IMG/VR virus record: IMGVR_UViG_3300042922_000270
Direction: 5' to 3' (one strand)
Source of the DNA: a virus
Lineage: Duplodnaviria > Heunggongvirae > Uroviricota > Caudoviricetes
Length of the DNA stretch: 64,000 nt
Below are positions 30,597 through 53,902 of this stretch, piece after piece. Position 1 is the first letter of the stretch, and the number at the start of each line of letters is the position of its first letter. Below the pieces are notes generated by a model, which was not told the DNA's origin, did no database searches, and saw only the letters and a program-made list of their open reading frames with translations. A program made the position numbers and the translations under genes.

Positions 30597-30618
30597 GGGA
30601 GAGGCCTAAGCCCCTCCC
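30597..30618. terminator. GC-rich hairpin overlapping the PRTase stop codon
   Basis: GGGAGAGGC-CTAA-GCCCCTCCC; near-identical in sequence to the hairpin at 32119..32141. Confidence 0.45.
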
Positions 30619-31442
30619 ACCTCACGCATGTTAGCAAATCCGTTATCGTGCCTGAACCTGATCAGTTCAAACCCTTTACGGAACTTATCTTCCTTGTCAT
30701 ACTCTTGCGAGATGCAAGCATGATAAAGCTTATCAACGAAGCCATCACTGACTCTGTTGAGGACGACCTCCAGCTCACAGAGCTGAATATCGAGGAGGTA
30801 TCTAGTAGCACGCACTACCAATTGATGGCCGGGCTGTTGAATGAGATTCAGGTAATCCTCAATGGATTGCATACCACAGAAGTTCAACTGGTTCTCGATC
30901 TTGGCCATACCGCCCTTATAGGTAGTGAAGTAGCAGAAGACCGTAGGATTCTCGATTCCCTGCTGGTGCATATACTGTCTGATCTTGGCTTCATGTTTAC
31001 CGGTGATCAAGCAATCATCAACAAACAGCAGGACCTTATCTTGGATGAAGTCCTTATTGAGGTAGAACTCATCAGCCATGATAAGGGCTTCCCTTTTCTC
31101 TTCAGGAAGGGTCGAGTAGTCATCGGTGTAGGAAAGTGTTCTCTGCATGAGAGTCCAATCCAACATCGTGTAACCCTCTCGGGTGAGCTTGTCGTTCAAT
31201 TCATTTCTGAAGTGACGAGCAAGAATGGTTGCTGCGATCTCCACAACCTTGAAGGCCGAAGGGATAACAACACATCTCTGAGTGGTTAGTAAGGTCTTGT
31301 GCTCTTCCCAGAACTTCTTAGCCATCTGACGACCAAGCAGACGAGCTGCTCTATCAGAACCAAACTTCAGCTCAGAGTAGTCTCTGGGGTCGAAGTTGGC
31401 GGTCTCAATGGATTCGAAGGTATGGGCGGTGAACTGTTTCAT
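30606..31442 (-). CDS. phosphoribosyltransferase-domain protein (Ter-cluster associated PRTase)
   Basis: VLLFVDDCLITGKHEAKI matches the PRPP-binding motif (hydrophobic-DD-hydrophobic-TG). Confidence 0.65.
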   Translation of the reverse strand: MKQFTAHTFESIETANFDPRDYSELKFGSDRAARLLGRQMAKKFWEEHKTLLTTQRCVVIPSAFKVVEIAATILARHFRNELNDKLTREGYTMLDWTLMQRTLSYTDDYSTLPEEKREALIMADEFYLNKDFIQDKVLLFVDDCLITGKHEAKIRQYMHQQGIENPTVFCYFTTYKGGMAKIENQLNFCGMQSIEDYLNLIQQPGHQLVVRATRYLLDIQLCELEVVLNRVSDGFVDKLYHACISQEYDKEDKFRKGFELIRFRHDNGFANMREVGGA

Positions 31443-32095
31443 ATCTCTGCTAACACTCTCTTAATATCTTTAGGGCCATTAACGTGTCTGTAGTGCATGC
31501 CATACTGGATAGCCGAACCATCACAGATGACATTATCGCCTATATGAAGGATCTCTTGAGGCTCTGCCATGGCCAAACTGTCTGCATCACAGGAGACTTT
31601 CTCCCAGAACACAGGACTAGGCTTAGCAGCACCTATTACATCGGAGAAAACCTTGAAGGCCCACTCTACCCCTAATTGGTTCAGCACAGCTTCTGACAGA
31701 ACCTTGCCTCTAACAAAGTTAGTATTAGAAGCAATGGACAGCAAGATGTCTTTGTTGGCCTCCTGGAAGACCTGCAAGACCTCTCGAAGGCCTGGCTGGA
31801 CAGTCGGAGGATAGGCTCTGAACAAAGCCTCTACGCCTGCACGGATAGGCTCTATAGGCATGCCCTCTCTGCCTGTGTACTTCAGAAACTGATTGTACAC
31901 TCCCACAGAGCTAAGACCGATGCCTTGCTGTTCAGCGTCTTCATCCAGGGCACTCTTAAGAGCTTTGTAGACATTACCCACCTGGACAATGTCTCTACCC
32001 AAAGCTTCACCCAAGAATCTATTTCTAGCTTGGCCGAACTCAGGGTTAGGGCTTATTAGAGTATTCCAGACATCAAACGACACCACTTTAATCAT
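31439..32095 (-). CDS. HAD-superfamily hydrolase
   Basis: VVSFDVWNTLI (HAD motif I, dehalogenase-like FD..GTL variant), C-terminal IGDNVICD (motif IV). Confidence 0.6.
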   Translation of the reverse strand: MIKVVSFDVWNTLISPNPEFGQARNRFLGEALGRDIVQVGNVYKALKSALDEDAEQQGIGLSSVGVYNQFLKYTGREGMPIEPIRAGVEALFRAYPPTVQPGLREVLQVFQEANKDILLSIASNTNFVRGKVLSEAVLNQLGVEWAFKVFSDVIGAAKPSPVFWEKVSCDADSLAMAEPQEILHIGDNVICDGSAIQYGMHYRHVNGPKDIKRVLAEI

Positions 32096-32118
32096 ACTAG
32101 GGCCTTTCTTCTCTGAAA

Positions 32119-32141
32119 GGGGAGAGCCTTAGCCCTCCCCC
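32119..32141. terminator. GC-rich hairpin between terC and the HAD gene
   Basis: GGGGAGAGCC-TTAG-CCCTCCCC followed on the minus strand by TTTCAG. Confidence 0.45.
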
Positions 32142-32151
32142 GAATGGCTGG

Positions 32152-33177
32152 TTAGGTAGCTGCTTCGAGCTTCTTAGCCTTGAGGCTACTCATGAAAGCA
32201 AACGCAATGAACGCTGCTCCCACAAGGCCTGTAAAGACCTCAGGTACTCGAACAAACAAACTACCAAGCATGGCAAATGCCAAGAAACCGATACCCCAAT
32301 GGGCACCATGCTCCAAGTACTGGTACTCAGAAAGCGTACCCAGCTCGACCAGCATGATGGTCATAGACCGTACGAACATCGCACCGATCATCAGACCAAT
32401 CATAATAATCAAAACTAGGTTAGTCACTGCAAACGCACCAATCACTCCATCAAAAGAGAATGATGCATCCAGGACTTCCAGGTACAAGAAGGACATGGCT
32501 CCGCTACGAGTAACTACACCTGCAGCGTCTTCCTGTTCGAAGACCCCACTGAGCACATCGATGAGGCGCTTGAGACCAAGGCCAGCTACCGAAGCAACAG
32601 CAACAGTAAGCTGATGCTGAGCAGGAGCCAACAAAGCTAGGGAAGCACAAACCAACAGTGAGAAGCCCAAGAGAGCATTCTGATACTGGCCAGCCTTAAC
32701 TAGCAACTGTTCGATAGGCTCAAGCCAGTGATGGTCCTTCTCGGGATCAGCAGCCCATGCCATGAACACTTCGAACAAGAACATGCCACCGAATGCCGAA
32801 ATAGCAGGGTGGGCTTCATGTAGCTTGTGAGCATACTCGTTAGGATTGGTCAGAGCCATATGAACAACTTCATACGGATTCATCCAAGCTGTGACACAGA
32901 CAATGAGAATCGGGAACACCAATCTCATGCCGAACACAGCAATGACCATACCCCAGGTCAAGAACCTACGACGCCATACAGCGTCCATCTTCTTAAGCTC
33001 TTTAGCGTTGACGACAGCATTATCAAAAGACAAGCTTACTTCGAGTACCGCCAGAATAGCCGCAGAGACAACTGCTGAGATAGCCCCAGCAAGGGCCCCG
33101 CCCTGCCATCCGTAAACAGCAGCCAGAATCAATCCGATAACTGAAACAATGTAAGACCACTTGAAGAACTTTAGCAA
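32152..33177 (-). CDS. terC: TerC-family integral membrane protein
   Basis: multi-pass membrane protein with LEVSLSFDNAVV (TerC S.DN motif). Confidence 0.65.
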   Translation of the reverse strand: MLKFFKWSYIVSVIGLILAAVYGWQGGALAGAISAVVSAAILAVLEVSLSFDNAVVNAKELKKMDAVWRRRFLTWGMVIAVFGMRLVFPILIVCVTAWMNPYEVVHMALTNPNEYAHKLHEAHPAISAFGGMFLFEVFMAWAADPEKDHHWLEPIEQLLVKAGQYQNALLGFSLLVCASLALLAPAQHQLTVAVASVAGLGLKRLIDVLSGVFEQEDAAGVVTRSGAMSFLYLEVLDASFSFDGVIGAFAVTNLVLIIMIGLMIGAMFVRSMTIMLVELGTLSEYQYLEHGAHWGIGFLAFAMLGSLFVRVPEVFTGLVGAAFIAFAFMSSLKAKKLEAAT

Positions 33178-33358
33178 GCTCGTCTCTCTTTCTTATGTTG
33201 AGAAGAATAGCTGTCTCTGAATTAGGTTAGTTTCTTTATAGCCTGGATAACTTCATTAAGCTCCTGCTTAAGCTCATCGTAAGTCTCTTCTGGAATGATT
33301 AGATCATCCCACATGACATCTATATTTTTAAGCTTACTAAGAATCTCTTTAAAAGTCA

Positions 33359-33964
33359 TTAGCCGATGTTAACACCGTAGTTACGTGCTAGAGTACCAAG
33401 GTCCCAATCCTGAGGGAAGCCCTGACCAACAGCATGGAAGTTCCACTCACCAGCTCCATTCTTACGAAGCTCAGCAAAGATAACCACAGCCAGTCCAGTA
33501 AACTCGTCAGCTAGGTCATAGCGACACAAGGTATTACCTGTGTTCTCATCTACAACCTGCACAAAGGCTCTACCTACATCACCAAAGCTCTGCCTACGGG
33601 CCTTGGCTTCATGAATGGTCACAGGTAGCACAATCTTATCAATCTTAGAATCAACACGTGATAGAGAAATCTTTAGGGTCTCGCACACATCGGTGCCTGA
33701 ACCACCCTTAAGGTCATCACCCATAGTCTCGACAGAGAGGTCAATGGTCTTAGGCTGACCATAATAACAGAAATAACCGTTAGTAGGGACCTTATCATTG
33801 CTCTGCACAAGAATAGCAGATGCATCAAGGTCAAAGTCATCACCAGAGGTAACACGAGCCTTCCAACCTAGCTCGACACGAATCTTATCAAGGTTAGCAA
33901 CAGTCTTCGAAAGGTTAAGCTTCTCGCTCTTCTTGAGCGTCAGTGCAACAGCGTTAGTAGTCAT
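33359..33964 (-). CDS. terD: TerD-domain protein
   Basis: GDDFDLDASAILV ... GDD ... typical TerD calcium-binding motifs; about 200 aa. Confidence 0.75.
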   Translation of the reverse strand: MTTNAVALTLKKSEKLNLSKTVANLDKIRVELGWKARVTSGDDFDLDASAILVQSNDKVPTNGYFCYYGQPKTIDLSVETMGDDLKGGSGTDVCETLKISLSRVDSKIDKIVLPVTIHEAKARRQSFGDVGRAFVQVVDENTGNTLCRYDLADEFTGLAVVIFAELRKNGAGEWNFHAVGQGFPQDWDLGTLARNYGVNIG

Positions 33965-33974
33965 GGTTCTTTCT

Positions 33975-34253
33975 TTAGTTATAGGTAATTATGTTGTTAG
34001 GCTCTATGATTTTATAGCTTGTCTTGTTGATAGAATCCCAAATAGTCATCCCTCTAAGATGACCGTGATGATCATACTCTCTATAGGAAATTCTACCTAT
34101 AATAGTTGTCCGACCCGGAACCATTATATTATATGTTTCCTCTGGAGCTTTTGTAGTCTCAGCTTTAGCTTGCTTTGTATTATCACAACTGGCAGCAAGT
34201 AAGAGGGTGGCCACTAGGACCACCCCCACCAGTTTACTGCGCTTAGCTGCCAT
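33975..34253 (-). CDS. lipoprotein
   Basis: Trimmed to the internal ATG: MAAKRSKLVGVVLVATLLLAASC lipobox; the longer ORF overlaps terD in another frame. Confidence 0.5.
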   Translation of the reverse strand: MAAKRSKLVGVVLVATLLLAASCDNTKQAKAETTKAPEETYNIMVPGRTTIIGRISYREYDHHGHLRGMTIWDSINKTSYKIIEPNNIITYN

Positions 34254-34854
34254 ACCCGTAGGTCTGGGCGATGTCAGCCAGCGTACCAGGCAGGGCAGCA
34301 CCCTGAACCTTGGCACGCCACTCACCGTTGGAGTCCTTGTACAGCTCGCCGAACAGGAGGGCCTGTGCAGTGGGCACGTCGTCGGACAATGGAACTGACT
34401 CAGCCAGCTTGGTGCCGGTGTCCGCATCACGGAACATGATGACAGCATCCGTGACCTGGCCGAACGTCTGGTTGCGGGTAGCAGCCTCGTGAATGGTCAC
34501 AGGGAAGACCACCTTGTCAGCACCCAGAGCTTCGAGCTTCTGGAGGTCGATCGTCAGCACCTCGTCGGGACCATCAGCAGCACCATCCAGGCTGTCGCCC
34601 GAGTGCACCACCGAGCCGTCAGCGTTGCTGAAGCTGCCGTCAGGATTCTTGTTCAGGCCGTAGTAGATGACCTGATCCTTGTCCAAGAGCTTGTTGCCCT
34701 TGAGCACCATGGCCGAGGCATCCAAGTCGAACTTGGTACCGGGGCTCACCGAAGGCTCCCAGGACAGCTCCACAGCAACCTTCTTGAGGCCAGGAGCAGC
34801 TTTGGCAAGGTTGAGGTTCTCGCCCTTACCGAGGGGAAGAGTGGCAATAGTCAA
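34243..34854 (-). CDS. terD: TerD-domain protein (second, GC-rich copy)
   Basis: KFDLDASAMVL ... GDSLDGAADGPDE, TerD motifs; local GC content is clearly higher than in the other TerD gene. Confidence 0.75.
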   Translation of the reverse strand: MTIATLPLGKGENLNLAKAAPGLKKVAVELSWEPSVSPGTKFDLDASAMVLKGNKLLDKDQVIYYGLNKNPDGSFSNADGSVVHSGDSLDGAADGPDEVLTIDLQKLEALGADKVVFPVTIHEAATRNQTFGQVTDAVIMFRDADTGTKLAESVPLSDDVPTAQALLFGELYKDSNGEWRAKVQGAALPGTLADIAQTYGYGS

Positions 34855-35234
34855 CTGAATTCTCCTTCTAGACGCTCAAGCTCTGCTCGTAGCATCATGA
34901 GTTGGGATTGGGTAATACAGCGGTCCTTACGATAAGCCCACCATAGGTCGGAACCTATCTGGTTATCTGGATCTAATCCACGGACCCGGTTAAGAGGTTT
35001 CTCGACTATAGGTCCCCAGAATGTCGGCTCTGGACCCTCAGGGTCAGGCAGAAGAAACTCTGGAGGCCCAGGGACTGATGCTAGGTCTCGTATATTACGA
35101 ATCCATTCATCAATCTCTTCATCATCAAGATCACTCATGCGACCCTCCTTCTTGTTCAGTCGGAGTTTACTTGGCCTTCTTGAATCGACCAAGTAGCTTG
35201 TTGGCGAAGTAGATCCCCACCCCAATGGCCGCAA
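34851..35234 (-). CDS. hypothetical protein
   Basis: 127 aa ORF, coupled to terD. Confidence 0.45.
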   Translation of the reverse strand: MRPLGWGSTSPTSYLVDSRRPSKLRLNKKEGRMSDLDDEEIDEWIRNIRDLASVPGPPEFLLPDPEGPEPTFWGPIVEKPLNRVRGLDPDNQIGSDLWWAYRKDRCITQSQLMMLRAELERLEGEFS

Positions 35235-35346
35235 TGACCAAGATGGGTAGAAGAGCTACAGCAGCCTTAAAGACGGTATGAGCGAGAACTAGACAACCAA
35301 TAATGGTTGCTACACCCAGAGCCGCTTTAAACTTATTCTTAAACAT

Positions 35347-35643
35347 TTACACTCCAAATATCTTTTCTATGTCTCTAGCTCTAGCTGTAAAGTAGTGGTC
35401 ACCGTACTTCAAAACATACGGTCTATCTCCCCAACTACGATGGTCTATAATCTCAGCTATCTGACCTATGGCAGCTTTAGCTTCAGCAGAGAGGGTATTA
35501 ATACGTGCCCAATCGAGAGTATTACTAACTACTACAGAACTATTAAAGTCACTCAAGTATTCTGTACCCATACCATTAACTCCAGCCTGTAGGTGTTTGA
35601 TTATAACTAGGTCTCCGACCTGGAATCTCTTATAATAAGGCAT
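35347..35643 (-). CDS. small paralog-family protein
   Basis: Trimmed to MPYYKRFQVGDLVIIKHL ... DIEKIFGV; the start follows a terminator U-tract. Confidence 0.5.
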   Translation of the reverse strand: MPYYKRFQVGDLVIIKHLQAGVNGMGTEYLSDFNSSVVVSNTLDWARINTLSAEAKAAIGQIAEIIDHRSWGDRPYVLKYGDHYFTARARDIEKIFGV

Positions 35644-35650
35644 AATAAAA

Positions 35651-35672
35651 AGGACCCCTACATGGGGTCCTT
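35651..35672 (-). terminator. rho-independent terminator
   Basis: AGGACCCC-ATGTA-GGGGTCCT then TTTTATTATG on the minus strand, directly after the 35658..36011 gene. Confidence 0.7.
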
Positions 35673-36011
35673 GAATCTCTTCCAACTGTTTAAGTATAGT
35701 TCGGCTGGTGCAAACGTAGTCAGCTCCCAGTCTGGGTGGTAAAACATAAATGGTCCGTAGTCCTGCATCAAGTAGAACTTGGAGTACTGGGGCCACTTAC
35801 TTACATTGTTGATAGTTATCTTTTGAGGAGAAACTAAGTCTAACTTAGGGCTGTACTGTCCGGTGACAATAAAGCCAGGTAGAGCTTCATACTCTACAGT
35901 TTCTTCCTCTAGTGTGCCGATTTTACAGGGAGTCCACACCTTACACTTAAACTGAATACTGTCAGTGGTTGGGCTGTAATCTGATTCCCATATTTGGCAA
36001 GTAACAGACAT
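35658..36011 (-). CDS. hypothetical protein
   Basis: 117 aa ORF ending in the terminator hairpin. Confidence 0.45.
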   Translation of the reverse strand: MSVTCQIWESDYSPTTDSIQFKCKVWTPCKIGTLEEETVEYEALPGFIVTGQYSPKLDLVSPQKITINNVSKWPQYSKFYLMQDYGPFMFYHPDWELTTFAPAELYLNSWKRFKDPM

Positions 36012-36014
36012 AAC

Positions 36015-36182
36015 TTAGTCAGGCTCTACTTCAATATTGATTCTGTAGAATTCATAACACGAATTACATTCGATAGGATTAACAAACCTACCTGTAATGT
36101 TTAAGACTTCTTGGGCATCCCCACAGTGGGGGCATTCTAGTAGGAAGTCTTCAGTTGAAATATATAGCTCTGAGTTGCTCAT
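36015..36182 (-). CDS. small Zn-ribbon protein (55 aa)
   Basis: Unlisted ORF MSNSELYISTEDFLLECPHCGDAQEV...CNSCYEF with two CxxC pairs. Confidence 0.4.
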   Translation of the reverse strand: MSNSELYISTEDFLLECPHCGDAQEVLNITGRFVNPIECNSCYEFYRINIEVEPD

Positions 36183-36251
36183 GATCGGTTACCTAGGGAT
36201 TGCTGTACACTACTTTAAGATAATCTATCTGACATGTGTTTACTAGGCATG

Positions 36252-36674
36252 TTAGTCTATTAAGGGCTTATAGATGAGCCCCTGACAGTTACCCTTCACA
36301 GCTCTGTTAAGTCTGTGGACACACGTATCACATAGATTATTGCTAGCCACTACAACCTCAGGTTTATGTGAAACCATCTTGGGAGGGAAGCACGCAGCAG
36401 AGGGAACCGGTCTAGGCTCAGCGGTCTGCTCGAAATAGGCTTTATCAGCATCCTGAGGACAAGTGAATGACTGTTGCATGTAAGTCATTCTATCTTTGGA
36501 CTCTACCTTATAGTTGGGCTGTCCATCGACTTCTTCGTAATAGAGTATATACGGCTGGTTATTGATAATAGCCGCAGCGGATGCTGTACTTATACTGGCC
36601 TTGATAGAATCGGTTATATCAAAGCCTACATTAAAATGAATGCTAGAAGGGTCTAGCTCAAACTCTGGTAACAT
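36252..36674 (-). CDS. hypothetical protein
   Basis: 140 aa ORF. Confidence 0.45.
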   Translation of the reverse strand: MLPEFELDPSSIHFNVGFDITDSIKASISTASAAAIINNQPYILYYEEVDGQPNYKVESKDRMTYMQQSFTCPQDADKAYFEQTAEPRPVPSAACFPPKMVSHKPEVVVASNNLCDTCVHRLNRAVKGNCQGLIYKPLID

Positions 36675-36736
36675 TAGTGGTGAACCTCATATCTGATTTG
36701 ATACAAGTATACCACTAATGTTACGCGATGAGAAGA

Positions 36737-37402
36737 TTATTCTCTTCTCCTTTTGATGACGGTGGTCTCTGTTTCTTGCAGGTGAAAGATACAGTTGCTT
36801 AGGGTACTGACATCAACAGCAGTGAACGGAGTAGTAGGGGCTATTAGCTCTACTATTCTCGTAACGTTCTTGTCATCAGTAAAGTAGAATTCGATTCTGT
36901 ATCTTCGTTCCACACTAGAACTTGATGGGATCAGGTCTAGTATGTCCATCATCAGCTTATTGTTACGAGACACGGCGTAGTGATAGGCCCCCCGGCCATT
37001 CTCATCTACTATCTCGGTGTTGGCTCCACAATCAACAAGCTTCTGAACCATTCTTATTCTGTCACGCCTAACCGCTAGGATGAGAGCTGTCTCACCTTTG
37101 TGATTGATTGTATCCAGTTCAATGTTTGGTTCATGTAAGAGCCTATCGAACATGTAGTCTTGGTCGTTGAGTACCGCCAGCATTAATGGGGTAACGTGAT
37201 CGTGGTTACCGATGTTAGGGTTTGCCCCGGCATCTAGTAGTCCATCAAACAGTTCTTCGTTACCAGCAATAACAGCTTTGATGAGAGGCGTCTCCCCCGA
37301 GTTGCTTCTCTTGTCTAAGCGTTCAGGATGTTTTCTGACATCCTTTAGGTATTGCTTTAATGCATCTCCAGTTAGATTAGGATCGTCTAACATAGTTTGC
37401 AC
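36737..37402 (-). CDS. ankyrin-repeat protein
   Basis: GETPLIKAVIAGNEELFDGLLDAGANPN ... HVTPLMLAVLND ... GETALILAV ... ; at least 4 ANK repeats. Confidence 0.75.
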   Translation of the reverse strand: MQTMLDDPNLTGDALKQYLKDVRKHPERLDKRSNSGETPLIKAVIAGNEELFDGLLDAGANPNIGNHDHVTPLMLAVLNDQDYMFDRLLHEPNIELDTINHKGETALILAVRRDRIRMVQKLVDCGANTEIVDENGRGAYHYAVSRNNKLMMDILDLIPSSSSVERRYRIEFYFTDDKNVTRIVELIAPTTPFTAVDVSTLSNCIFHLQETETTVIKRRRE

Positions 37403-37427
37403 TCCTATCTCTGATATCTCTGAATAG

Positions 37428-37742
37428 CTAGGTGGTAAAGAGAACCTCTACCTGGTCCTCACGAACAGTAAACTTATCTTCTATCCAATAAATGGTATGA
37501 ATACTATCTGGGTACTTAGCAAGGTCAGGCTCCAACATATCAGTGATCTTACCTATATAGCCTATATACTTACTAAAGTAGGGCTCATCCTTTAGGCTTC
37601 CGTGATCTAGATCTGGACCTCTTGCCGGATCCCCCGTTATGTCTAGTACTCGCACTAGATCGTTTAAATTGATCGACAATGTATCTCCCTGAAAGGTCAT
37701 TAAGAGGACTATTGTTAGGAGGCAACTTCTTAGCATTGGCAT
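37428..37742 (-). CDS. paralog-family-like protein
   Basis: INLNDLVRVLDI ... DQVEVLFTT; overlaps the 37585..37929 ORF. Confidence 0.45.
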   Translation of the reverse strand: MPMLRSCLLTIVLLMTFQGDTLSINLNDLVRVLDITGDPARGPDLDHGSLKDEPYFSKYIGYIGKITDMLEPDLAKYPDSIHTIYWIEDKFTVREDQVEVLFTT

Positions 37743-37929
37743 GCTGATTGCAGAACCTACAGGGGTACAGCATAGCTTCTCGCTGAGACTGAATGTCTCT
37801 TATGTCTGTGTACCACCTGCGGTCAGCGCAGCCCCAACACTGTTTCTTATCTAACTTCTCAGACAACAGCCCGAGTCCGAACAACACACTGTCCGTCTTC
37901 ATTGAGCATTTCTTGCTTGGTATACTCAA
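37585..37929 (-). CDS. Zn-ribbon-like hypothetical protein
   Basis: CWGC ... CRFC pairs; the 3' part overlaps the previous ORF in another frame. Confidence 0.35.
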   Translation of the reverse strand: MSIPSKKCSMKTDSVLFGLGLLSEKLDKKQCWGCADRRWYTDIRDIQSQREAMLYPCRFCNQHANAKKLPPNNSPLNDLSGRYIVDQFKRSSASTRHNGGSGKRSRSRSRKPKG

Positions 37930-38115
37930 CCAACTGATCTAGGAGTTTTTGTGTAGTTAGGCCAGGCTGTCTGTACATAGAATTGAAGATCAACTCTCCG
38001 TTACGTTCAATCGTGCCTACTAGTATATTAGCAACCATGTTCCAGCTTACCCTCAGGAATGTAGACTAGCCATCTAGTCTTATGTGTTTAGCTGTCTCGT
38101 AGCTCTGAAGAAGTT

Positions 38116-38364
38116 CTATACCGAAAAGATTAACTCTAGTTCATATTTGTGAGCCCAAAGGCCCAGACCATCGAATACTATCCAGTACCAACTGTTTATC
38201 ATGGGGTCGCCCATTGGCCCACGAGGCATGATAACCTCAGCTATCTGACCTACGTATCGGCTAATGTAACGACCCCTACCTGTGTTATAGACTTGACCTG
38301 GTGTACGAACAGCAGTATTAACTCTCTTGATTACAACAAGGTCACCCTTATGGAATAAAGTCAT
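38116..38364 (-). CDS. small paralog-family protein
   Basis: FHKGDLVVIKRV ... YELELIFSV. Confidence 0.6.
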   Translation of the reverse strand: MTLFHKGDLVVIKRVNTAVRTPGQVYNTGRGRYISRYVGQIAEVIMPRGPMGDPMINSWYWIVFDGLGLWAHKYELELIFSV

Positions 38365-38591
38365 TTAGTAAAGAAGAGTTCTATCTCTTCTCTCCCAAAG
38401 TAATCGGCCTCATAGTCGTTATAGTCCTTATCAAACTTTAGAAAGTACTCTAGGCCTTGACGACAGCCAAGGTCTAGATGCTCAACCTCATAGATTTTGC
38501 CTATGTGGGTGCCCTTCCAGTCGTCTCTTCCAGACCTGGGGCCATCAGATAGAACTATAACCAGATCACCAGGTTTAATGTTATTCGTCAT
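38361..38591 (-). CDS. small paralog-family protein
   Basis: IKPGDLVIVLSD ... EEIELFFTK. Confidence 0.6.
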   Translation of the reverse strand: MTNNIKPGDLVIVLSDGPRSGRDDWKGTHIGKIYEVEHLDLGCRQGLEYFLKFDKDYNDYEADYFGREEIELFFTK

Positions 38592-39804
38592 ACTTGAGGT
38601 TAAACTTAGGGCTGATAACCTTGAAGCTTACGAAGCCAGCGTTTAGATCACCCAGATCAAAATCGAACTTAGGCTCGACTAGTCTGTAGACATCACCTTC
38701 ACGCTCAGTCTTCTTGTTATGAACCGACTTACCTTCGGCCATAGCCACAAGCTCGTCCACTGTGTGATTGAGAACAAAGTCTCTATCGATGATAGGAACC
38801 ATGTTAAGGCCTAGAGCTCTAACAAGCTTCTCAGTTTCTTCAAGACTATAATAGGTAAGGCTATCCGGATCGAATGCCTGAAAGACGAATAGATCCTTCT
38901 TCTTAAAGTCATACTTGTTACCCTGAATACCGGGACCACACATCTCACCCTGAATAACCAGATTGGTTCCAAAAGGAGTGCAGAGTGACCTCATCTTAGT
39001 TTCCAGGTCCAGCTCAAGGGCTAGCTCCCAGAAGGTAGGATCAACTCCAGCATCAATGTCCACAAGAGCTAGCAGCTCGTTGAAGAACTTCTTACGAACA
39101 ATACCAGTCCACTTAGGATTGTACTTGTCCATAAAGATAGTCCACTTGTACTCAGCCATCTTAATCTTCTTACGAAGGTTAAACTTAGTACAGACCTTGG
39201 ACCACCAATCATCACCAGGACGCGCTAGCTCTAGGTTACGAGAAGCAATACCGAACTTACCATCTTTGAGGTAGGCAGTGAAGCTGGAACCGTCCATCTT
39301 CTCAGCCCTATAGAATCTATGACCTCTGTACTTCTCCAGGAGCTTCTCCAAGATCTGTACACGAGTCTCGTCAGTCTTATAGATGAACGAGGGGAAGGGC
39401 ATACCAGACTTCTTCCGGAAGACACCAGCCAACTTAGGCTGACCCTTCTGAGGCTTCTGGTAGGGCTCCCACTTCTTGATACCGATGACATCAGTCACGT
39501 CAGTACCCTCAGGGCAGCCTTGCATGTTTTTAGGTAGAATAGTTACAGGGAAGCAGATACCCTGAGAGATCTGACCACGGAGCTTAATAGTCTGGACTCT
39601 GAACTTACGCTGACGCATAAACTCAAACTCAGGCTTCTCCGGTAGGAGAGAATCGATCTCAACGTAAACACACTTATCACCAGGTTTAAACTCGTCAAGT
39701 TTTACAACTACGTTCCAACCAAGTACCCTAGCTCTCTGAATAGCATCAGCGCCCTCAATGGGCTGAATATCTTTGATAGTCTGAATAGAGGCTAGTTTTC
39801 TCAT
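38581..39804 (-). CDS. RNA ligase (ATP-dependent, Rnl-family)
   Basis: AEKMDGSSFTAY contains the nucleotidyltransferase motif I (K.DG) in an Rnl-like context; 407 aa. Confidence 0.65.
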   Translation of the reverse strand: MRKLASIQTIKDIQPIEGADAIQRARVLGWNVVVKLDEFKPGDKCVYVEIDSLLPEKPEFEFMRQRKFRVQTIKLRGQISQGICFPVTILPKNMQGCPEGTDVTDVIGIKKWEPYQKPQKGQPKLAGVFRKKSGMPFPSFIYKTDETRVQILEKLLEKYRGHRFYRAEKMDGSSFTAYLKDGKFGIASRNLELARPGDDWWSKVCTKFNLRKKIKMAEYKWTIFMDKYNPKWTGIVRKKFFNELLALVDIDAGVDPTFWELALELDLETKMRSLCTPFGTNLVIQGEMCGPGIQGNKYDFKKKDLFVFQAFDPDSLTYYSLEETEKLVRALGLNMVPIIDRDFVLNHTVDELVAMAEGKSVHNKKTEREGDVYRLVEPKFDFDLGDLNAGFVSFKVISPKFNLKYDE

Positions 39805-40067
39805 TTAGTAAATACCAATTCCAAATCATCTGGGTGTACCAGTCTAGTATTATCCGAACGTCCAGGGTATGCACCCAGTGTAATATACACATGGTCTTCC
39901 CAGAGAGTAGAGCCAGTTGGATACAGATATTCGAACACAGCCCCTATATCTGCTTCTGTTGGAGCATAAGAAGTTGCTTTTCTGTATCTGCAATTATCTA
40001 GACGGGTTAGTATAACCAAGTCACCACTAGAGAAGTTCTTCGAGGCTCTCACGAATAGCTGCCTCAA
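39801..40067 (-). CDS. small paralog-family protein
   Basis: FSSGDLVILTRL ... DDLELVFTK. Confidence 0.6.
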   Translation of the reverse strand: MRQLFVRASKNFSSGDLVILTRLDNCRYRKATSYAPTEADIGAVFEYLYPTGSTLWEDHVYITLGAYPGRSDNTRLVHPDDLELVFTK

Positions 40068-40353
40068 CTTCTAGAGTGTCGATGTAATAATCCTCGTTTG
40101 CATCAAGGTAACTCAACGCAGTCATACCAAAGTTATCTTCGAGTTTAGGGTTAGCACCCTGCTGTTTGAGATAAGCATAGACAGTAATGTCAGTACTTAG
40201 GGCAGCTAGTACTAGAGGTGTTGCTCCATCACTATCAGTACAGTTAATATCTGCACCAAGAGTTAGAGCTTCGATAACATCTTCTATATTGTTCTCTGAG
40301 GCCGCTTTTAGCAGCATAGCGTTATACGCTTCTTGAAGGATTTGTTGATTCAT
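40027..40353 (-). CDS. ankyrin-repeat protein (short)
   Basis: DGATPLVLAALSTD ... GMTALSYL ; 2-3 ANK repeats. Confidence 0.65.
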   Translation of the reverse strand: MNQQILQEAYNAMLLKAASENNIEDVIEALTLGADINCTDSDGATPLVLAALSTDITVYAYLKQQGANPKLEDNFGMTALSYLDANEDYYIDTLEVEAAIRESLEELL

Positions 40354-40377
40354 AGTTTTAAGGCTTCGGGGGCTTAA

Positions 40378-40393
40378 GCCCCCTCAGCTCGTA
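40378..40393. terminator. palindromic GC hairpin
   Basis: GGGGGC-TTAA-GCCCCC between the 40404..40964 gene and the ankyrin gene. Confidence 0.4.
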
Positions 40394-40403
40394 TCTTTCT
40401 TTG

Positions 40404-40964
40404 TTAGATTAGCACGTTGGGCTCAAGGTTCTCGATCTGCTCAGCTGCTCGCTTAGCGTGCTCGAAAGCCTTGGAGGCGATCTGGCTCACCTTCTGGGTG
40501 GGGTCAATCTTAAACCCTTCGTGTAGCGCAACTGACTCGGGGTTGAACCCGATGAGACAGTTGATAGGAGTGATACCCTTGGCGAGGAAAAGGTCGCCGT
40601 TGATCCCGTAGTGGGCCAGGTAATCCGTATTCGCCCATTCCTTGAGTGAGCCAAAGAAGCGGTGAGGCTCCTGAGACAACTTAGGGAAGTAGTACTTGGG
40701 ATTGTCCTTATCGTTGGACTGCTTCTCACCAATGAATCGGTCTTCACCGATACGCCACTGATGGAACCCGCAAGCTTCGAAAGCGATGACAGAAGCGTAG
40801 TCAATGTTCTCCAGCTTCACGTAATCCGTGTTGATGGCTAGATTGACATGCTTGGGAATGATGCGCTCACCATCCTCACCGTCCACGAAGACCAAAAGCG
40901 AAGAGCGACCCTCTTTAAAGTCGATACGCTTCTTTACTCGGCCGGTGTACATCTTCTTGTTCAT
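40404..40964 (-). CDS. hypothetical protein (GC-rich island)
   Basis: 186 aa ORF with clearly elevated GC. Confidence 0.45.
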   Translation of the reverse strand: MNKKMYTGRVKKRIDFKEGRSSLLVFVDGEDGERIIPKHVNLAINTDYVKLENIDYASVIAFEACGFHQWRIGEDRFIGEKQSNDKDNPKYYFPKLSQEPHRFFGSLKEWANTDYLAHYGINGDLFLAKGITPINCLIGFNPESVALHEGFKIDPTQKVSQIASKAFEHAKRAAEQIENLEPNVLI

Positions 40965-41006
40965 CTGGGAGTTCCCCCTAATTCTTAAAATAACAAGACT
41001 AGGTAT

Positions 41007-41354
41007 CTAGTCCTTCAGGAATATTCTCGCTATCTCAGATATAAGTTTGGGGGCTTCAGTCATTAAACCTCCGGTAGACAACCATTTGATTAAACAAACG
41101 TACTTAGGCAACCTGTGGTGCTCTAAGTCTTGGATAATGGTTGCTACGACAGGTACCTCCAGTAACTCATTAGTTTTATGGTTACAATAGACCTTCCTAT
41201 TTTGGCCTGCGTACACCCCAATCTCTTTAGCAAGGATATCCTTCTCTTTAGTGGTCCAAGGTTTGCCTGGATCTTTATGGAGTTGGGCTACCGCTCTGCT
41301 GAAGTACAGGGAGTAATTAGGAAGGCTATCTGGAACTTGTAGTTCATCAATCAT
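41007..41354 (-). CDS. hypothetical protein
   Basis: 115 aa ORF. Confidence 0.45.
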   Translation of the reverse strand: MIDELQVPDSLPNYSLYFSRAVAQLHKDPGKPWTTKEKDILAKEIGVYAGQNRKVYCNHKTNELLEVPVVATIIQDLEHHRLPKYVCLIKWLSTGGLMTEAPKLISEIARIFLKD

Positions 41355-41491
41355 GTAGTATTAAGTAATTCTCCGGTTAAACAGACATAACAGTGACCAT
41401 GTAGGGTCTGCTGTCTGTTAGGTTGGATGCACACGTAACACATACAAGAATGACTAGAGGGAGGCTATAACGGCTTCCCTGAGATTAGTTG

Positions 41492-42250
41492 TTAAGCGAC
41501 GAGGCCTTTGGCACGAGCCTGCTTGAGCCAGCCGGGGAACTCGGTGAGGATCTTCCCATAGAGCTTAGGCCCATCGAGGGTCGGCTCCATGTGGAAGAAG
41601 TCAGCATTGTCCAGGAAGCGACCAGTCAGGTCGTCCAGCTTCTGGAGGAACTTGAACTGCTCGTTGCCGATGCCCACGAACTGGAAGAAGATGGCATGAG
41701 TCGAGGCGTCACGAAGAGCCTTCTCAGTCTCGGGGTGATCGAAGTTCTCACCATCGGTCAGGAAGAACACGAAGGTAGGAACCTCCGGAGTGCGCTCCTC
41801 GCTAGACACGTGGGTGACAGTCTCGGTCTTACCGAAGAAGCCCATGATGCCCTTAGCCTTCTCAGTGGTCGTGGTGATCTGCTGCTGCTTGTTGCCCATG
41901 TCAGCCACGATGGCGTTGATGGTGTAAGCAAACATGGTACCACCACTGGCACGGATGTTCTTGTTGATCCAGCCATCCGAGTTGGAGACGGACATGGTAC
42001 CAACCTTACCATGGTTGATGGTGTAGACGTCGATCTGCTGATCCGGATCCCAATGGGCCGACAAGGCGAGCAGACGGTCAGCAACGTTCTGGACCTGGCC
42101 AGACGAATACTCACCACCCATGCTACCGGAGTCGTCCAGGACAACCACAACGTTCGCTCTCAGAGTGTCGAGGTTCTTCTTCTCCAAGGTCAGCTTGACT
42201 TCCTTCTGGAGGGTCAGCTGGTCTTCCTTCTTGAGAGAAAGCATAGTCAT
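41492..42250 (-). CDS. vWA-domain protein (TerY-like)
   Basis: VVVVLDDSGSMGG MIDAS motif; about 250 aa like TerY/TerF vWA proteins; GC-rich. Confidence 0.65.
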   Translation of the reverse strand: MTMLSLKKEDQLTLQKEVKLTLEKKNLDTLRANVVVVLDDSGSMGGEYSSGQVQNVADRLLALSAHWDPDQQIDVYTINHGKVGTMSVSNSDGWINKNIRASGGTMFAYTINAIVADMGNKQQQITTTTEKAKGIMGFFGKTETVTHVSSEERTPEVPTFVFFLTDGENFDHPETEKALRDASTHAIFFQFVGIGNEQFKFLQKLDDLTGRFLDNADFFHMEPTLDGPKLYGKILTEFPGWLKQARAKGLVA

Positions 42251-42258
42251 GTAGATTA

Positions 42259-43527
42259 CTACTCCTTTTGACTTCCGAAGAAGTTATTACCAGACATAAG
42301 CTGGGTAAGCATTAGCATCTCTGAAAGGTCAGACTTACCTTCACCCTTGCCCATGAACATCATCATAGCCATAGGGTTCTTGGAGAAGTCCATAGTAGTA
42401 TTGCCGCCACCCATGAACTGAGACAACATCATCATCTCAAGTGGATCGGACTTTCCTTCGCCCATCATGCCAAACATCATGAGCTGGTTAAGGTTAGCGT
42501 TGTTATCGCCACCAAAATTCATCATAGAGACGACCTTAGTAAATAGCTTCATACCAAACATGTTGGAGCTAGGTACTAGAGTCTCTTCTTTACTGTTACG
42601 AGGATTGATACCTACAATGTTACCATTCTTCTTGATATCAGTTACAAATAGATACAGATCAGAACCACCATTACCACCACTGTTGTTTAGGATTAGATCA
42701 CCCTTCTTAACGTCAGTAGCCTGGACAGGCATATTGTATAGAAAGTCACCACCCATAGCCATCCCAGCGGGTACACGAGTAAGCTCTGAACCATTAAACG
42801 CAGCATACTCTTGATTACCTGCTAGAGCTACAGCTACGCCTGCAGCAGTGAGGCTAACTTCATTAGAAGTGTTCTTACCAAAGGTGACACCCAGAAGCTT
42901 CTTAAAGTTCATATTGTTCTTGCTTTCTTCCTTGGGCGCTTCAGCCCCAATAGTAGTCTTGTCTGTACCATTAAGAGTTGTATTAGCCGCTAGCTTAGTA
43001 CCGGTAGATTCAACTTTCCACTTACCATCTTCACCCTTAACAATACGTTTGGGGTCAGTTGGGTTTGCTCTGAGACCAAGCCAACCGACATGGTCATCTT
43101 TCTCAACAATAGTTAGTTCTAGGTCGTCAGGGTCGTCGGCACATTGTCCCCGAATATTATAACAATAAGCTGTGCCATCGCCGTCTTCAGCAGTGACTGC
43201 CCAAGGCCAGTCTTTTAGCTCATCACTGATACCAGTTACTGTAACAAAGGTGCCGTCATCATCACCAAGAACATAGGTATCACCCACACTCCAGTCAAAC
43301 TTAGGTTTAGGAATCTTGGCTGTAGGCCCGACTACACGCATAGGATCTAACATTGAATCGTAACGACCCTGTCTTCCATCCTCCATGTGCCACTCTTCGT
43401 AGGTCCCATGAATATCTTTCATTAGATATGGATATTGATCATCGTCGTCATCGTATTCTACGTATCTCAGAACGGTACCATCGACGGTCTCGTAGTACCG
43501 CCCTAGCATCCAGTTAATCTTACTCAT
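42259..43527 (-). CDS. hypothetical protein with Met/Gly-rich C-terminal repeats
   Basis: 422 aa; C-terminus has repeated GEGKSD(L/P)xEMxML segments. Confidence 0.45.
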   Translation of the reverse strand: MSKINWMLGRYYETVDGTVLRYVEYDDDDDQYPYLMKDIHGTYEEWHMEDGRQGRYDSMLDPMRVVGPTAKIPKPKFDWSVGDTYVLGDDDGTFVTVTGISDELKDWPWAVTAEDGDGTAYCYNIRGQCADDPDDLELTIVEKDDHVGWLGLRANPTDPKRIVKGEDGKWKVESTGTKLAANTTLNGTDKTTIGAEAPKEESKNNMNFKKLLGVTFGKNTSNEVSLTAAGVAVALAGNQEYAAFNGSELTRVPAGMAMGGDFLYNMPVQATDVKKGDLILNNSGGNGGSDLYLFVTDIKKNGNIVGINPRNSKEETLVPSSNMFGMKLFTKVVSMMNFGGDNNANLNQLMMFGMMGEGKSDPLEMMMLSQFMGGGNTTMDFSKNPMAMMMFMGKGEGKSDLSEMLMLTQLMSGNNFFGSQKE

Positions 43528-43764
43528 CTGTTACCTTTCCAGGTGTATTTAATATAAAGGGCGATTGAAGGGTACTGCCCCCTCTTCTCCGGCTTCACAG
43601 GCCGGCGCATCACTAAAATGCTTCAAACGCCACAAACTTACTTCAGTGCCGAAAAGATCGACAACCCGAGCCCAATGAGGCCCATACCAATACCAGCCAT
43701 AACCAGATGAGCGTAGGTAGCTGGATCCATGATACCCATACCGATACACACACCGGCAAAGATA

Positions 43765-44575: not shown

Positions 44576-44579
44576 AAAG

Positions 44580-44652
44580 TCGGCCCTACGGGATTCGAAC
44601 CCGTGCTAAGAGTTTTAGAGACTCCTGTGCTATCCGCTAACACCAAAGGCCG
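44580..44652 (-). tRNA. tRNA with anticodon CUA (predicted amber-suppressor tRNA)
   Basis: Hand-folded cloverleaf: acceptor CGGCCUU/AGGGCCG, D-stem GUGU/GCAC, anticodon stem GGAGU/ACUCU, loop C-U-CUA-A-A, T-arm ACGGG-UUCGAAU-CCCGU, discriminator A; no encoded CCA. Confidence 0.6.
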
Positions 44653-45001: not shown

Positions 45002-45487
45002 TTAGGGTCCTAATGCATCATTTACCTCTTTCTGTAAATCATAGTTAAACTTAGTACTGTCGCTGAGAAGCTCTATCCCATCGAGGTTACGGGCGTAACT
45101 ATTAATGTAGTTTTGTTTACGTTGTTCCCACTGCTCGTCTGTGTAGTGAGAAAGTTGCTCTCTAGGGACAGCCAGTTGGTTTAGACAATAAGTTACACCT
45201 TCACGACATCTCTCAAGTTCTTTGAGCCTGATATTCTCGAAGATGGCCTTCTGATCCACCACACCGCTATCTAGTAGAGGTTTAGCTACCCTAAAGAGAC
45301 TGGTGTGCCCAAAGCTCTCACAGAACTCTTCTTTAATGGGCTTATCAATATTATCGTATGTTTCCCAGGTATGTCTACAACCTTGGACCATATTAGCTAT
45401 AAGCTCAGTGGTATCCTGAATAATCTTCTTGAGCTTATCAATCTCATCCTGTTGTTTCTGGATGTATGCTGCTTCAGCGTACGTCAT
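45002..45487 (-). CDS. hypothetical protein
   Basis: 161 aa ORF. Confidence 0.45.
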   Translation of the reverse strand: MTYAEAAYIQKQQDEIDKLKKIIQDTTELIANMVQGCRHTWETYDNIDKPIKEEFCESFGHTSLFRVAKPLLDSGVVDQKAIFENIRLKELERCREGVTYCLNQLAVPREQLSHYTDEQWEQRKQNYINSYARNLDGIELLSDSTKFNYDLQKEVNDALGP

Positions 45488-48665: not shown

Positions 48666-49004
48666 CTAGTGCCCCGTGTTGTGGTGAGGGTCAGGACAGC
48701 GACAACGCACACCCTTATCCTCAGTCTTAGGCTTCTTTGACTCTTCGTAAGCAGCATTGGCACTAGCCAAAGTCTTAGGGTCAATCTTAGCCAAAGCCTT
48801 CTGCTTCTCGTGATCGATGGCAATGTAGAACATGATCTCATCTCTCACAAGAGAATCAATCATTAGAGGCTTGAGGGCCTCCATAATCACAGAGCCATTG
48901 ATACGACTCTCAATCTCAGGACGCTTGGTTTCAGCAAAGGCTTTGGCCTCGGCAACAACCTTAGGGTCTAGAGTCTCAAGTAGCTGGTCCAATGTTTTGA
49001 GCAT
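48666..49004 (-). CDS. hypothetical protein
   Basis: Trimmed to the internal ATG (MLKTLDQLLE...) to minimise overlap with the NADAR gene. Confidence 0.4.
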   Translation of the reverse strand: MLKTLDQLLETLDPKVVAEAKAFAETKRPEIESRINGSVIMEALKPLMIDSLVRDEIMFYIAIDHEKQKALAKIDPKTLASANAAYEESKKPKTEDKGVRCRCPDPHHNTGH

Positions 49005-49470: not shown

Positions 49471-49493
49471 TATTACCTCTATTATTATATTAC

Positions 49494-53737: not shown

Positions 53738-53902
53738 TAAGGATTCCTTTCTTGTACCAGCGTAACTAAAAGCTGGATCAGGCAACTGATAAGAGCCAGT
53801 GTAAGCACGGCTCCACCAATCAGTACCAGGTAGGGAGTACACGGATCTGACGCTAAGAATGTCCCAATAGAGGGGCTCTCGAAGAATGCAGCATTCATAG
53901 GA

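Follow-up and report, generated by a model that had tools for sequence, protein, structure and literature searches.

The window analysed here, a stretch of 64,000 nucleotides, belongs to a large, previously unsequenced phage with tellurite-resistance-type (Ter) genes. The element can be recognised as a phage, as the earlier note had assumed, from its family A DNA polymerase and helicase, its RNA-repair genes, and its 14 tRNAs, and all large genes of the window share one strand. One of the window proteins also appears in a JGI contig of 208,594 bp. The Ter genes are, with near certainty, a phage-borne module of the kind catalogued in jumbo and large myoviruses. The best explanation of the whole, to which we assign a probability of about one half, is a phage Ter module that combines an enzyme pair with a membrane-proximal set of proteins.

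Gene content and layout of the Ter core

We assigned protein families by Pfam profile searches with scores far above the curated cut-offs. The PRTase, the HAD hydrolase, TerC, the two TerD proteins, and the vWA protein, previously recognised as co-oriented genes, are all present on the minus strand, and the profiles for TerD (PF02342), TerC (PF03741), vWA, and PRTase each scored well above cut-off, confirming a Ter-type neighbourhood. The gene order is vWA...TerD2-Lpp-TerD1-TerC-HAD-PRTase. The earlier note had placed the vWA gene downstream of the core; its separate position holds, but in transcription order it lies upstream, with 6.6 kb of other genes between. A terminator-like hairpin identified by a sequence scan (35650..35672, minus strand; 9-bp stem with 6 G-C pairs, T-run) ends the upstream unit just ahead of the first Ter core gene. 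Because the hairpin and the gene overlaps delimit it, the Ter core is probably one transcription unit of ~5 kb from 35,650 to 30,606. Besides the Ter genes, this unit contains two small ORFs and the genes for a lipoprotein and a 59-aa membrane protein.

The first gene past the hairpin (35347..35643, minus strand) encodes a 98-aa member of an SH3-like small-protein paralogue family, assigned by a local HMM and by fold, which is probably not Ter-specific. It is followed on the same strand by the 59-aa small membrane protein (35167..35346), known from its translation and from a gene call in a Logan assembly, in which two hydrophobic stretches and a lipobox-like IIGC can be discerned by eye. The next gene, for a 95-aa acidic protein (34851..35138, minus strand) with neither a Pfam nor a PHROG match, overlaps with its stop the start of TerD2 by 4 nt.

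The two TerD paralogues, TerD2 (34243..34854, minus strand; PF02342 E 9.3e-44; TTG start after GAAGGAG) and TerD1 (33359..33964, minus strand; PF02342 E 8.3e-54), are only 39% identical to each other. The alignment of TerD1 with Klebsiella TerD, whose structure is solved (PDB 2kxt, E 1.4e-42), runs end to end, whereas the best relatives of TerD2 reach just 40% identity. TerD proteins are a Ca2+-binding family with the fold represented by 2kxt. As had been noticed, the paralogues differ in base composition, with a GC of 0.469 and GC3 of 0.436 in one against 0.598 and 0.74 in TerD2.

A lipoprotein had also been reported to overlap the TerD junction. The call as a lipoprotein stands, but the overlap shrinks: the ORF, listed at 33975-34448, most plausibly starts at ATG 34253, giving a 92-aa protein (33975..34253, minus strand; MAAKRSKLVGVVLVATLLLAAS ahead of the Cys) that overlaps the end of TerD2 by 11 nt only. 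With its KRSK n-region, hydrophobic core, and LAAS before the Cys, it is probably a lipoprotein or a secreted protein. None of the other Ter loci in the comparison has a homologue of it, it gave no PHROG, Pfam, or PADLOC match, and judged by sequence comparison it is specific to this phage.

A 45-aa ORF (33222..33359, minus strand) separates TerD1 from the TerC-clan membrane protein (32152..33177, minus strand), which falls into the DUF475 subfamily (PF04332, E 3e-98) and also matches TerC (PF03741, E 1.6e-17; 64 bits against a cut-off of 27.8) and the NCBIfam PRK14013 models. A hydropathy scan gave about 8 hydrophobic stretches, and paired LSFDN and FSFDG motifs are visible by eye.

The HAD-PRTase_3 pair and the vWA region

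The enzyme pair directly follows TerC within the same unit. The HAD hydrolase (31439..32095, minus strand; PF00702 E 1.6e-8; NCBIfam REG-2-like family IA) precedes PRTase_3, a ComF-like, Ter-associated phosphoribosyltransferase (30606..31442, minus strand; PF15610 E 2.7e-47, 161.8 bits against a cut-off of 28.7); the HAD stop overlaps the PRTase_3 start by 4 nt, which suggests translational coupling. It belongs to the Ter-associated PF15610 family and is not a generic salvage enzyme, in agreement with the earlier note. PRTase_3 is 56% identical to Caulobacter phage homologues, and no solved relative was found by sequence. Its PRPP loop, FVDDCLITGKHE, displays the hydrophobic stretch, two acidic residues, and T-G of type I phosphoribosyltransferases, and its residues D142, D143, T147, and G148 do not vary among five phage lineages.

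Motifs I-IV of the HAD protein are likewise invariant across five phage lineages, including the nucleophile Asp8, Ser123, Lys158, Asp187, and Asp192. Motif I reads FDVWNTL, in which an equally invariant Trp replaces Asp+2; the closest solved protein, 2om6, bears the same DVWNTL motif. A classical DxD-type HAD phosphatase was rejected, as motif I lacks the Asp+2 general acid/base. The protein is a HAD-superfamily member whose phosphatase activity is not assured.

The remaining Ter gene, at 41492..42250 on the minus strand, encodes a vWA-TerF-like protein (PF10138, E 7e-50, 170 bits) with an intact MIDAS motif, DDSGS, recognised by eye. Its best profile identifies it as TerF-type and not as TerY-like, as formerly proposed. 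The TerY-P triad of a TerY vWA, a PP2C phosphatase, and a Ser/Thr kinase was also rejected: neither the vWA protein nor its neighbours gave a PADLOC match, and kinase and PP2C families are absent among the Pfam matches listed. The PADLOC scan of ten proteins matched no defence model, TerY-P included, at a meaningful level.

Immediately upstream, a 422-aa protein with two Met/Gly-rich C-terminal repeats (42259..43527, minus strand) ends 8 nt before the vWA start. It sits where other phages have TelA, and is not a demonstrated Ter component. Between the vWA gene and the core lie two ankyrin-repeat proteins (36737-37402 and 40027-40353) and an RNA ligase with an OB-fold and an RNA_ligase domain (38581-39804), all identified by Pfam on the minus strand. 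Their suggested partnership with the module is not borne out: no other phage has homologues of the ankyrin proteins, the 422-aa protein, or a 186-aa ORF next to its Ter genes, and just 2 of 17 loci have an RNA-ligase homologue close to the module.

With TerD proteins, a TerC-family membrane protein, a TerF-type vWA, and a linked PRTase and HAD, the window contains most hallmarks of a Ter neighbourhood. TelA and/or TerB is the exception. Run against every minus-strand ORF of at least 40 aa in the 64-kb window, a local HMM for TelA reached E 0.31 at best, and both families are absent among the Pfam matches listed for the window genes. TelA and TerB are optional in published phage versions of such neighbourhoods, and the published model puts TelA in a sub-membrane structure. 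Missing Ter partners had been expected at 40404-40964, 42259-43527, and 45474-46190, none of which was recognised as one; the first two could be assigned to no family. The ORF at 45474-46190, without a Pfam family match, is a candidate minimal ATP-grasp-like protein: a profile of 70 relatives weakly matched synapsin (E 0.0023), RimK (0.17), and LysX (0.31), and the family has a conserved C-terminal D-x-N-x-x-P-G motif. Of the 15 viral loci carrying this family, none has a Ter gene within 10 kb.

Ter modules in other phages and bacteria

Phage carriage of a Ter module, thought unusual in the earlier note, is in fact widespread. By tblastn, homologues of PRTase_3, TerD, vWA-TerF, and DUF475 were found in 157, 186, 247, and 40 GenBank phage records, respectively, including phapecoctaviruses and Caulobacter, Brevundimonas, Rhizobium, and Klebsiella phages, and phage Ter systems have already been described (Iyer et al., 2021, PMC7824862; Estrada Bonilla et al., 2021, PMC8386662). 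Since the same module is documented in well over 100 other phages, we regard the present one as another example of a known phage accessory module. HAD lies immediately upstream of PRTase_3 in all 17 IMG/VR viral loci and in 21 of 25 bacterial loci. In 12 of the 17 viral PRTase_3 loci, one or more of TerD, vWA, TelA, and TerC can be found no further than 10 kb away in the same orientation.

The same gene sets occur in ESCO5, FKP3, CcrColossus, and ME3. The Stephanstirmvirinae (ESCO5/phAPEC8-like Phapecoctavirus; FKP3, phiKp34, Justusliebigvirus) share the overlapping HAD-then-PRTase_3 genes, TerC/DUF475, vWA-TerF, and TerD, with all Ter components on one strand within about 10 kb, and two TerD genes, as here, are reported for the Klebsiella phage phiKp34. 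However, protein identities to our phage are only 27–46%, and the order is HAD-PRTase...TerC...TelA...vWA-TerD. Their clusters contain TelA and a Macro-domain gene, both lacking in the cluster described here, whereas they lack its lipoprotein, 59-aa membrane protein, and 422-aa protein.

The Caulobacter jumbo phage CcrColossus has a TelA-vWA-TerC-TerD operon (Iyer et al., 2021) and, together with CcrPW, the closest PRTase_3 (56% identity), accompanied by its HAD partner. In CcrColossus, the enzyme pair is about 27 kb away from the Ter operon, unlike the single unit with TerC observed here. The Acinetobacter phage vB_AbaM_ME3 carries vWA-TerC-TerD followed by PRTase, HAD, and PRTase genes; as its PRTases and HAD gave no BLASTP match to the window proteins at E<=1e-3, these PRTases probably belong to different families. 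The gene upstream of vWA also differs, being TelA in CcrColossus, a 320-aa ORF in ME3, and the 422-aa protein here.

Bacterial Ter neighbourhoods similarly combine TerD paralogues, the TerC family, vWA, and PRTase and HAD genes (Anantharaman, Iyer, Aravind, 2012), and the HAD-PRTase_3 pair adjoins TerD in assemblies of Bacteroidales and Haliea. In contrast to these, no TerB, TelA, ATPgrasp_Ter, or C-C bond lyase was detected in the window, and the membrane protein is DUF475 and not canonical TerC. A terZABCDEF operon, as on IncHI2 plasmids and in E. coli O157, was rejected, for no TerB was found and the order TerD2-Lpp-TerD1-TerC-HAD-PRTase is unrelated to it.

Possible roles of the module

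The most likely role would be remodelling of the envelope or ion state of the infected cell, or superinfection exclusion. PRTase_3 would move phosphoribose from PRPP onto an acceptor, and the HAD enzyme would turn the product into a nucleoside-like small molecule, a dephosphorylation step made uncertain by the missing Asp+2 general acid/base; this molecule could be a ligand or signal for TerD-type proteins. The membrane-proximal set would comprise the DUF475 inner-membrane protein, two TerD proteins, and vWA-TerF with its MIDAS metal site, joined in this phage by the lipoprotein and the 59-aa membrane protein. Produced during infection, the Ter proteins would assemble at the host inner membrane and alter the envelope and divalent-cation state of the cell, which might prevent competing phages and colicin-like agents from entering or becoming established, and keep the cell stable until lysis. 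We put this mechanism forward tentatively, at somewhat less than even odds. The two small envelope proteins inside the operon are consistent with an envelope role, and Iyer et al. (2021; PMC7824862) proposed that phages use their Ter systems to compete with superinfecting phages. Early expression of Ter genes in infection has been reported for an Endozoicomonas phage. Against the mechanism stand the failure of our literature searches to find an experiment on any phage Ter module, the absence of a meaningful PADLOC defence match, the failure to detect TelA in the 64-kb window, and the unusual HAD motif I.

The module could instead consist of host-fitness genes, with TerC exporting or handling Mn2+, Zn2+, or Ca2+, and TerD and vWA buffering divalent cations, so that the infected cell is shielded from metal or oxidative stress and keeps making phage without selection for excluding competitors. 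The Ca2+-binding TerD fold would suit this reading, which we nevertheless consider unlikely. Passages in the literature tie Klebsiella terC to zinc resistance (PMC12054061) and describe the TerC-family protein Alx as a Mn2+ exporter (PMC10197570), and the XaC1 authors read TerD as an auxiliary gene for harsh conditions. The obligatory HAD-PRTase_3 pair (17/17) would be left unexplained, however, and TerC is the least conserved component, present in 5 of the 17 viral loci and in 40 phage records against 157–247 for the others.

That pair might alternatively make a non-canonical nucleoside or nucleotide for phage DNA, tRNA, or nucleotide pools, the Ter proteins being mere neighbours. In several phages it lies beside nucleotide-metabolism genes: in FKP3 and ESCO5 these code for ribonucleotide reductase and MazG, and in Rhizobium phage TM30 for DHFR, a PurA-like enzyme, and a cytidyltransferase. 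In rhizobia it has no Ter gene within 10 kb. On both counts, its product is not necessarily meant for Ter proteins. The window itself encodes ThyA, DHFR, dTMP kinase, dCMP deaminase, and many RNA-repair genes. Yet no base-exchange, glycosylase, or DNA-transferase partner adjoins the pair in the loci examined, and its co-oriented neighbours are TerD, vWA, TelA, or TerC in 12 of the 17 viral loci and TerC, in one unit, in this window, which leaves nucleic-acid modification distinctly unlikely.

Counter-defence would mean that the phage-encoded versions disrupt a Ter-type or nucleotide-signal immune pathway of the host, with TerD as a ligand sponge, for instance, or with enzymes that make or destroy the signal; this appears quite improbable. 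The module resides among further conflict genes, namely a NADAR gene (48976-49533), a Macro domain, RNA-repair enzymes, and tRNAs, Macro-domain genes adjoin Ter genes in FKP3 and ME3, and two divergent TerD copies could bind ligands; but a matching Ter defence in the hosts of these phages is not evidenced, a sponge-like expansion was not seen, and the idea is not raised in the literature retrieved.

That independently acquired genes have come together here by chance, without a shared function, is highly improbable, even though TerD2 and vWA-TerF differ in composition from the other genes and unrelated genes separate vWA from the core, because 12 of 17 independent viral loci have these families together and in the same orientation, and the combination recurs in many unrelated phage lineages.

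Local peculiarities of the module are the absence of TelA from the window and the GC3-rich TerD2, vWA-TerF, and 186-aa orphan genes, the three most GC3-rich of 118 genes. The GC3 of vWA-TerF (0.76) is the highest of all, and vWA-TerF and TerD2 are the top two outliers. The module looks like a mosaic assembled piecemeal, with TerD2 and vWA-TerF as later, higher-GC additions.

Identity and arrangement of the Ter genes

This phage, of a new lineage, carries a genuine Ter module that adds a further member to a described class. Pfam searches bore out the families that an earlier note had read from the sequence for the phosphoribosyltransferase, the HAD hydrolase, TerC, the two TerD proteins, the ankyrin-repeat proteins and the RNA ligase, all encoded on the minus strand. 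The PRTase_3 protein (30606-31442; PF15610, E = 2.7e-47) belongs to a Ter-associated, ComF-like phosphoribosyltransferase family, and the HAD hydrolase (31439-32095) also matched the REG-2-like model of NCBIfam, well under that model's cut-off. The TerC/DUF475 membrane protein (32152-33177) matched DUF475 (E = 3e-98) and, again above threshold, TerC, and TerD1 (33359-33964) and TerD2 (34243-34854) matched the Pfam TerD family with E-values of 8e-54 and 9e-44, respectively. The protein at 41492-42250 (minus strand), previously described as a TerY-like vWA protein, retained its vWA assignment but not the TerY likeness, since its Pfam match is vWA-TerF-like (E = 7e-50). Pfam also identified the two ankyrin-repeat proteins (36737-37402 and 40027-40353) and the OB-fold RNA ligase (38581-39804). 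Every Ter gene matched a PHROG family, so each of them already has phage relatives.

The PRPP loop FVDDCLITGKHE is kept in PRTase_3, where D142, D143, T147 and G148 are invariant across five phage lineages. The HAD hydrolase retains the nucleophile Asp8 together with Ser123, Lys158 and Asp187/Asp192, whereas the +2 position of its motif I (FDVWNTL) is an invariant Trp where classical HAD phosphatases have Asp; an identical motif I occurs in 2om6, the closest protein with a solved structure. TerD from Klebsiella (2kxt) aligns with TerD1 over the full length of TerD1. By eye, we located a DDSGS MIDAS motif in the vWA protein and paired LSFDN and FSFDG motifs in the TerC/DUF475 membrane protein. 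Judged from these residues, none of the Ter proteins looks degenerate, and phosphatase activity of the HAD protein does not look assured.

A strong hairpin with a T-run at 35672-35650 lies ahead of an ATG at 35643, from which tightly packed genes extend to 30606, encoding a 98-residue SH3-like paralogue, a 59-residue membrane protein, a 95-residue acidic protein, TerD2, a 92-residue lipoprotein-like protein, TerD1, a 45-residue ORF, TerC/DUF475, HAD and PRTase_3. The stop of the 95-residue ORF overlaps the TerD2 start, and the HAD and PRTase_3 genes overlap by 4 nt. The lipoprotein-like ORF begins 11 nt inside the TerD2 end, which corrects the start first listed for it. We infer that the core forms one transcription unit of ~5 kb, for which the consensus scans count as weak evidence. 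They place a sigma-70-like site after the PRTase_3 stop, and promoter-like sites were rarer in the real than in shuffled sequence. The vWA-TerF gene, placed downstream in the earlier note, actually lies upstream in the order of transcription, 6.6 kb from the core, and starts 8 nt past the stop of the gene for a 422-residue protein. Within the operon, the lipoprotein-like protein and the 59-residue membrane protein are found in this phage alone. No riboswitch was found upstream of TerC, as Rfam returned only tRNAs across 29.5-45 kb.

An unsampled jumbo-sized phage and the probable stepwise assembly of its module

The minus strand holds all large ORFs of the window. PHROG and Pfam scans identified an SNF2-type helicase, a family A DNA polymerase, a CCA-adding enzyme, thymidylate synthase, DHFR and other phage-typical genes, as well as a 747-residue kinase-phosphatase-RNA ligase. 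A megablast search with the 12.9-kb region matched none of 50,697 phage records, the DNA polymerase is only ~26% identical to its best phage matches, and a JGI contig carrying the 422-residue protein spans 208,594 bp. The phage is therefore jumbo-sized, new at the DNA level and from an unsampled lineage. A 57.7-kb Logan assembly (SRR35179700) also contains the region.

ARAGORN found 14 tRNA genes in the window, among which an EF-Ts homologue (56040-56909, minus strand; PF00889, E = 5e-45) is encoded. A further tRNA-like element at 43560-43630 (minus strand), just upstream of the 422-residue gene, was missed by ARAGORN and scored 35.9 bits with Rfam against a gathering score of 29; its fold is a cloverleaf that has a GUG (His) anticodon and an odd T-loop. 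The tRNA at 44579-44652 (minus strand), labeled Pyl by ARAGORN, has the amber-suppressor anticodon CTA. We rejected recoding of TAG by this suppressor, because TAG ends 20 of the 118 predicted genes and the four in-frame TAG junctions, counted in a window that the late genes fall outside, were judged compatible with chance (e.g., the 115- and 186-residue ORFs at 40407-41360). Conflict or membrane genes elsewhere in the window encode a NADAR protein (48976-49533), a GC3-rich SPFH/Band 7 protein (52817-53842) and a BCS1-like AAA ATPase (60808-62004), and the Pfam scan also matched a Macro domain, a cREC_REC domain, a DUF2201 VWA-like metallopeptidase and RlaP.

As noted earlier, the two TerD paralogs differ in GC content (GC3 of 0.44 versus 0.74), and the proteins are 39% identical. 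The three highest GC3 values among the 118 predicted genes belong to vWA-TerF (z = 3.6), TerD2 (z = 3.4) and the 186-residue ORF (z = 2.8); the composition of TerD1, TerC and HAD is ordinary for the genome. These values suggest that the module was built stepwise from different sources, or alternatively that the GC3-rich genes reflect the strong codon bias of highly expressed genes. A single-protein scan of GTDB genomes returned no match for a recent donor of the GC-rich TerD2, and since its best relatives are just 40% identical, no donor or host can be named.

Absent partners and the flagged reading frames

The earlier note had suggested looking for missing Ter partners among three unannotated ORFs, none of which was found to be one. 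The 186-residue ORF (40404-40964) is an orphan whose sole match among 5.8 billion sequences is itself. The 422-residue protein (42259-43527) had no Pfam, PHROG, PADLOC or NCBIfam match; its three relatives and one GenBank contig all occur in phage contexts without Ter genes, and its AlphaFold model is unusable (pLDDT 31.7). The 238-residue protein (45474-46190, minus strand) is a member of an uncurated family that comprises 382 clusters at 50% identity, matched no Pfam model and occurs in diverse viral contigs. The profile of this family matches the ATP-grasp proteins synapsin, RimK and LysX, from which its members look like minimal ATP-grasp-like proteins. Nevertheless, we rejected the 238-residue ORF as the missing Ter ATP-grasp, because none of 15 viral loci of the family had a Ter gene within 10 kb.

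A profile built from three TelA proteins found no match among the minus-strand ORFs of the window. TelA, TerB, ATPgrasp_Ter, kinase and PP2C were all absent from the listed Pfam matches, which cover almost all of the 118 predicted genes and leave out 27 small SH3-like paralogues. The ten proteins scanned with PADLOC yielded nothing beyond a weak match of the PRTase fold to ShosT (E = 0.0038). As candidate TelA substitutes, ME3 gp167 and CcrColossus gp218 were scanned, and neither had a family.

The locus adds a divergent and compact example of a Ter system, with the core genes in one apparent operon, the checked motifs present and TelA absent from the window. A more specific reading, to which we give only about one chance in eight, is that this lineage rebuilt its module along unusual lines: an old PRTase_3-HAD-TerC-TerD1 core would have gained TerD2 and vWA-TerF from a source of higher GC, and the Met-rich 422-residue protein and two small envelope proteins would have replaced TelA, giving a membrane complex that does without TelA and has a new partner for the vWA protein.

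Ter modules in other phages and their possible role

The earlier note considered phage carriage of a Ter module unusual, which is contradicted by both prior descriptions and our tblastn counts of phage records with matches to TerD (186), PRTase_3 (157), vWA-TerF (247) and DUF475 (40), with hosts including Escherichia, Klebsiella, Caulobacter, Brevundimonas, Rhizobium, Campylobacter, Xanthomonas and Bacillus. Ter systems have been described in jumbo phages, relatively complete in ME3 and as abbreviated operons in Caulobacter phages, and were also noted in related smaller phages (Iyer et al., 2021, PMC7824862). In Klebsiella phage phiKp34, terC and telA are accompanied by two terD genes and a vWA gene of the terF type (Estrada Bonilla et al., 2021, PMC8386662). 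Other genome papers mention phage TerD, and a preprint reports early expression of the Ter genes of an Endozoicomonas phage. Annotated regions of other phages hold these same gene sets: ESCO5 and FKP3 read HAD-PRTase...TerC...TelA...vWA-TerD, the order in CcrColossus is TelA-vWA-TerC-TerD and its enzyme pair sits at a distance of 27 kb, and in ME3 vWA-TerC-TerD precedes PRTase, HAD and PRTase genes. Because culturable E. coli, Klebsiella and Caulobacter phages carry the same genes, the value of the present locus is comparative.

In our IMG/VR census, HAD lies directly upstream of PRTase_3 on the same strand in all 17 loci, with TerD (11/17), vWA (10/17), TelA (10/17) and TerC (5/17) within 10 kb; a single-protein scan of IMG/VR with the PRTase gave no match. 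Bacterial genomes keep the HAD-PRTase_3 pair in 21 of 25 loci, with TerD near four and vWA near one, and in rhizobia the pair stands alone. A chance grouping of the Ter genes is contradicted by the census, where at least one of TerD, vWA, TelA and TerC neighbors PRTase_3 in 12 of the 17 loci. The locus is also evidence that phages build the module from separate pieces, which speaks for selection on the combination itself.

Family identities, intact motifs, operon-like packing and linkage across lineages are established; beyond them, the mechanism is a matter of inference. PRTase_3 and HAD may produce a ribosylated small molecule, and TerC, the TerD proteins and the vWA protein would act at the inner membrane with divalent cations, so that competing phages or toxins might be excluded and the infected cell stabilized. 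Competition with superinfecting phages has been proposed as the role of phage Ter systems (Iyer et al., 2021, PMC7824862), and the literature retrieved reports no functional test of any phage Ter module. Alternatively, the selected function could be metal or stress tolerance, or the enzymes could belong to a pathway modifying nucleotides or nucleic acids, as nucleotide-metabolism neighbors in other phages suggest; a counter-defence role is a further candidate.

We dropped MT836648.1 ("Bacteriophage sp.", 15 kb), the best "phage" match to TerD1, as phage evidence. It has three TerD genes by BLASTP and by eye resembles a bacterial chromosome fragment, with TelA-like, two PRTase-like and lyase-like genes and ORFs like MoaB, MoaC, TatD and Met-tRNA synthetase. 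The automatic annotation of FKP3 (PP895363.1) is misleading, as the PRTase_3 gene is labeled "Zot-like toxin", the vWA-TerF homologue "tail protein", the TerD homologue "HNH endonuclease" and a SprT-like protein "DNA helicase".

The window shares only Ter proteins with the 17 viral loci, except for an RNA-ligase homologue in two of them. These homologues of the OB-fold RNA ligase (L032, 674-1822; L034, 4867-6078) lie a few genes upstream of TelA, and a CcrColossus gene annotated "tRNA splicing ligase" is 1.3 kb from TerD, hinting weakly at a recurring association between RNA-repair and Ter genes.
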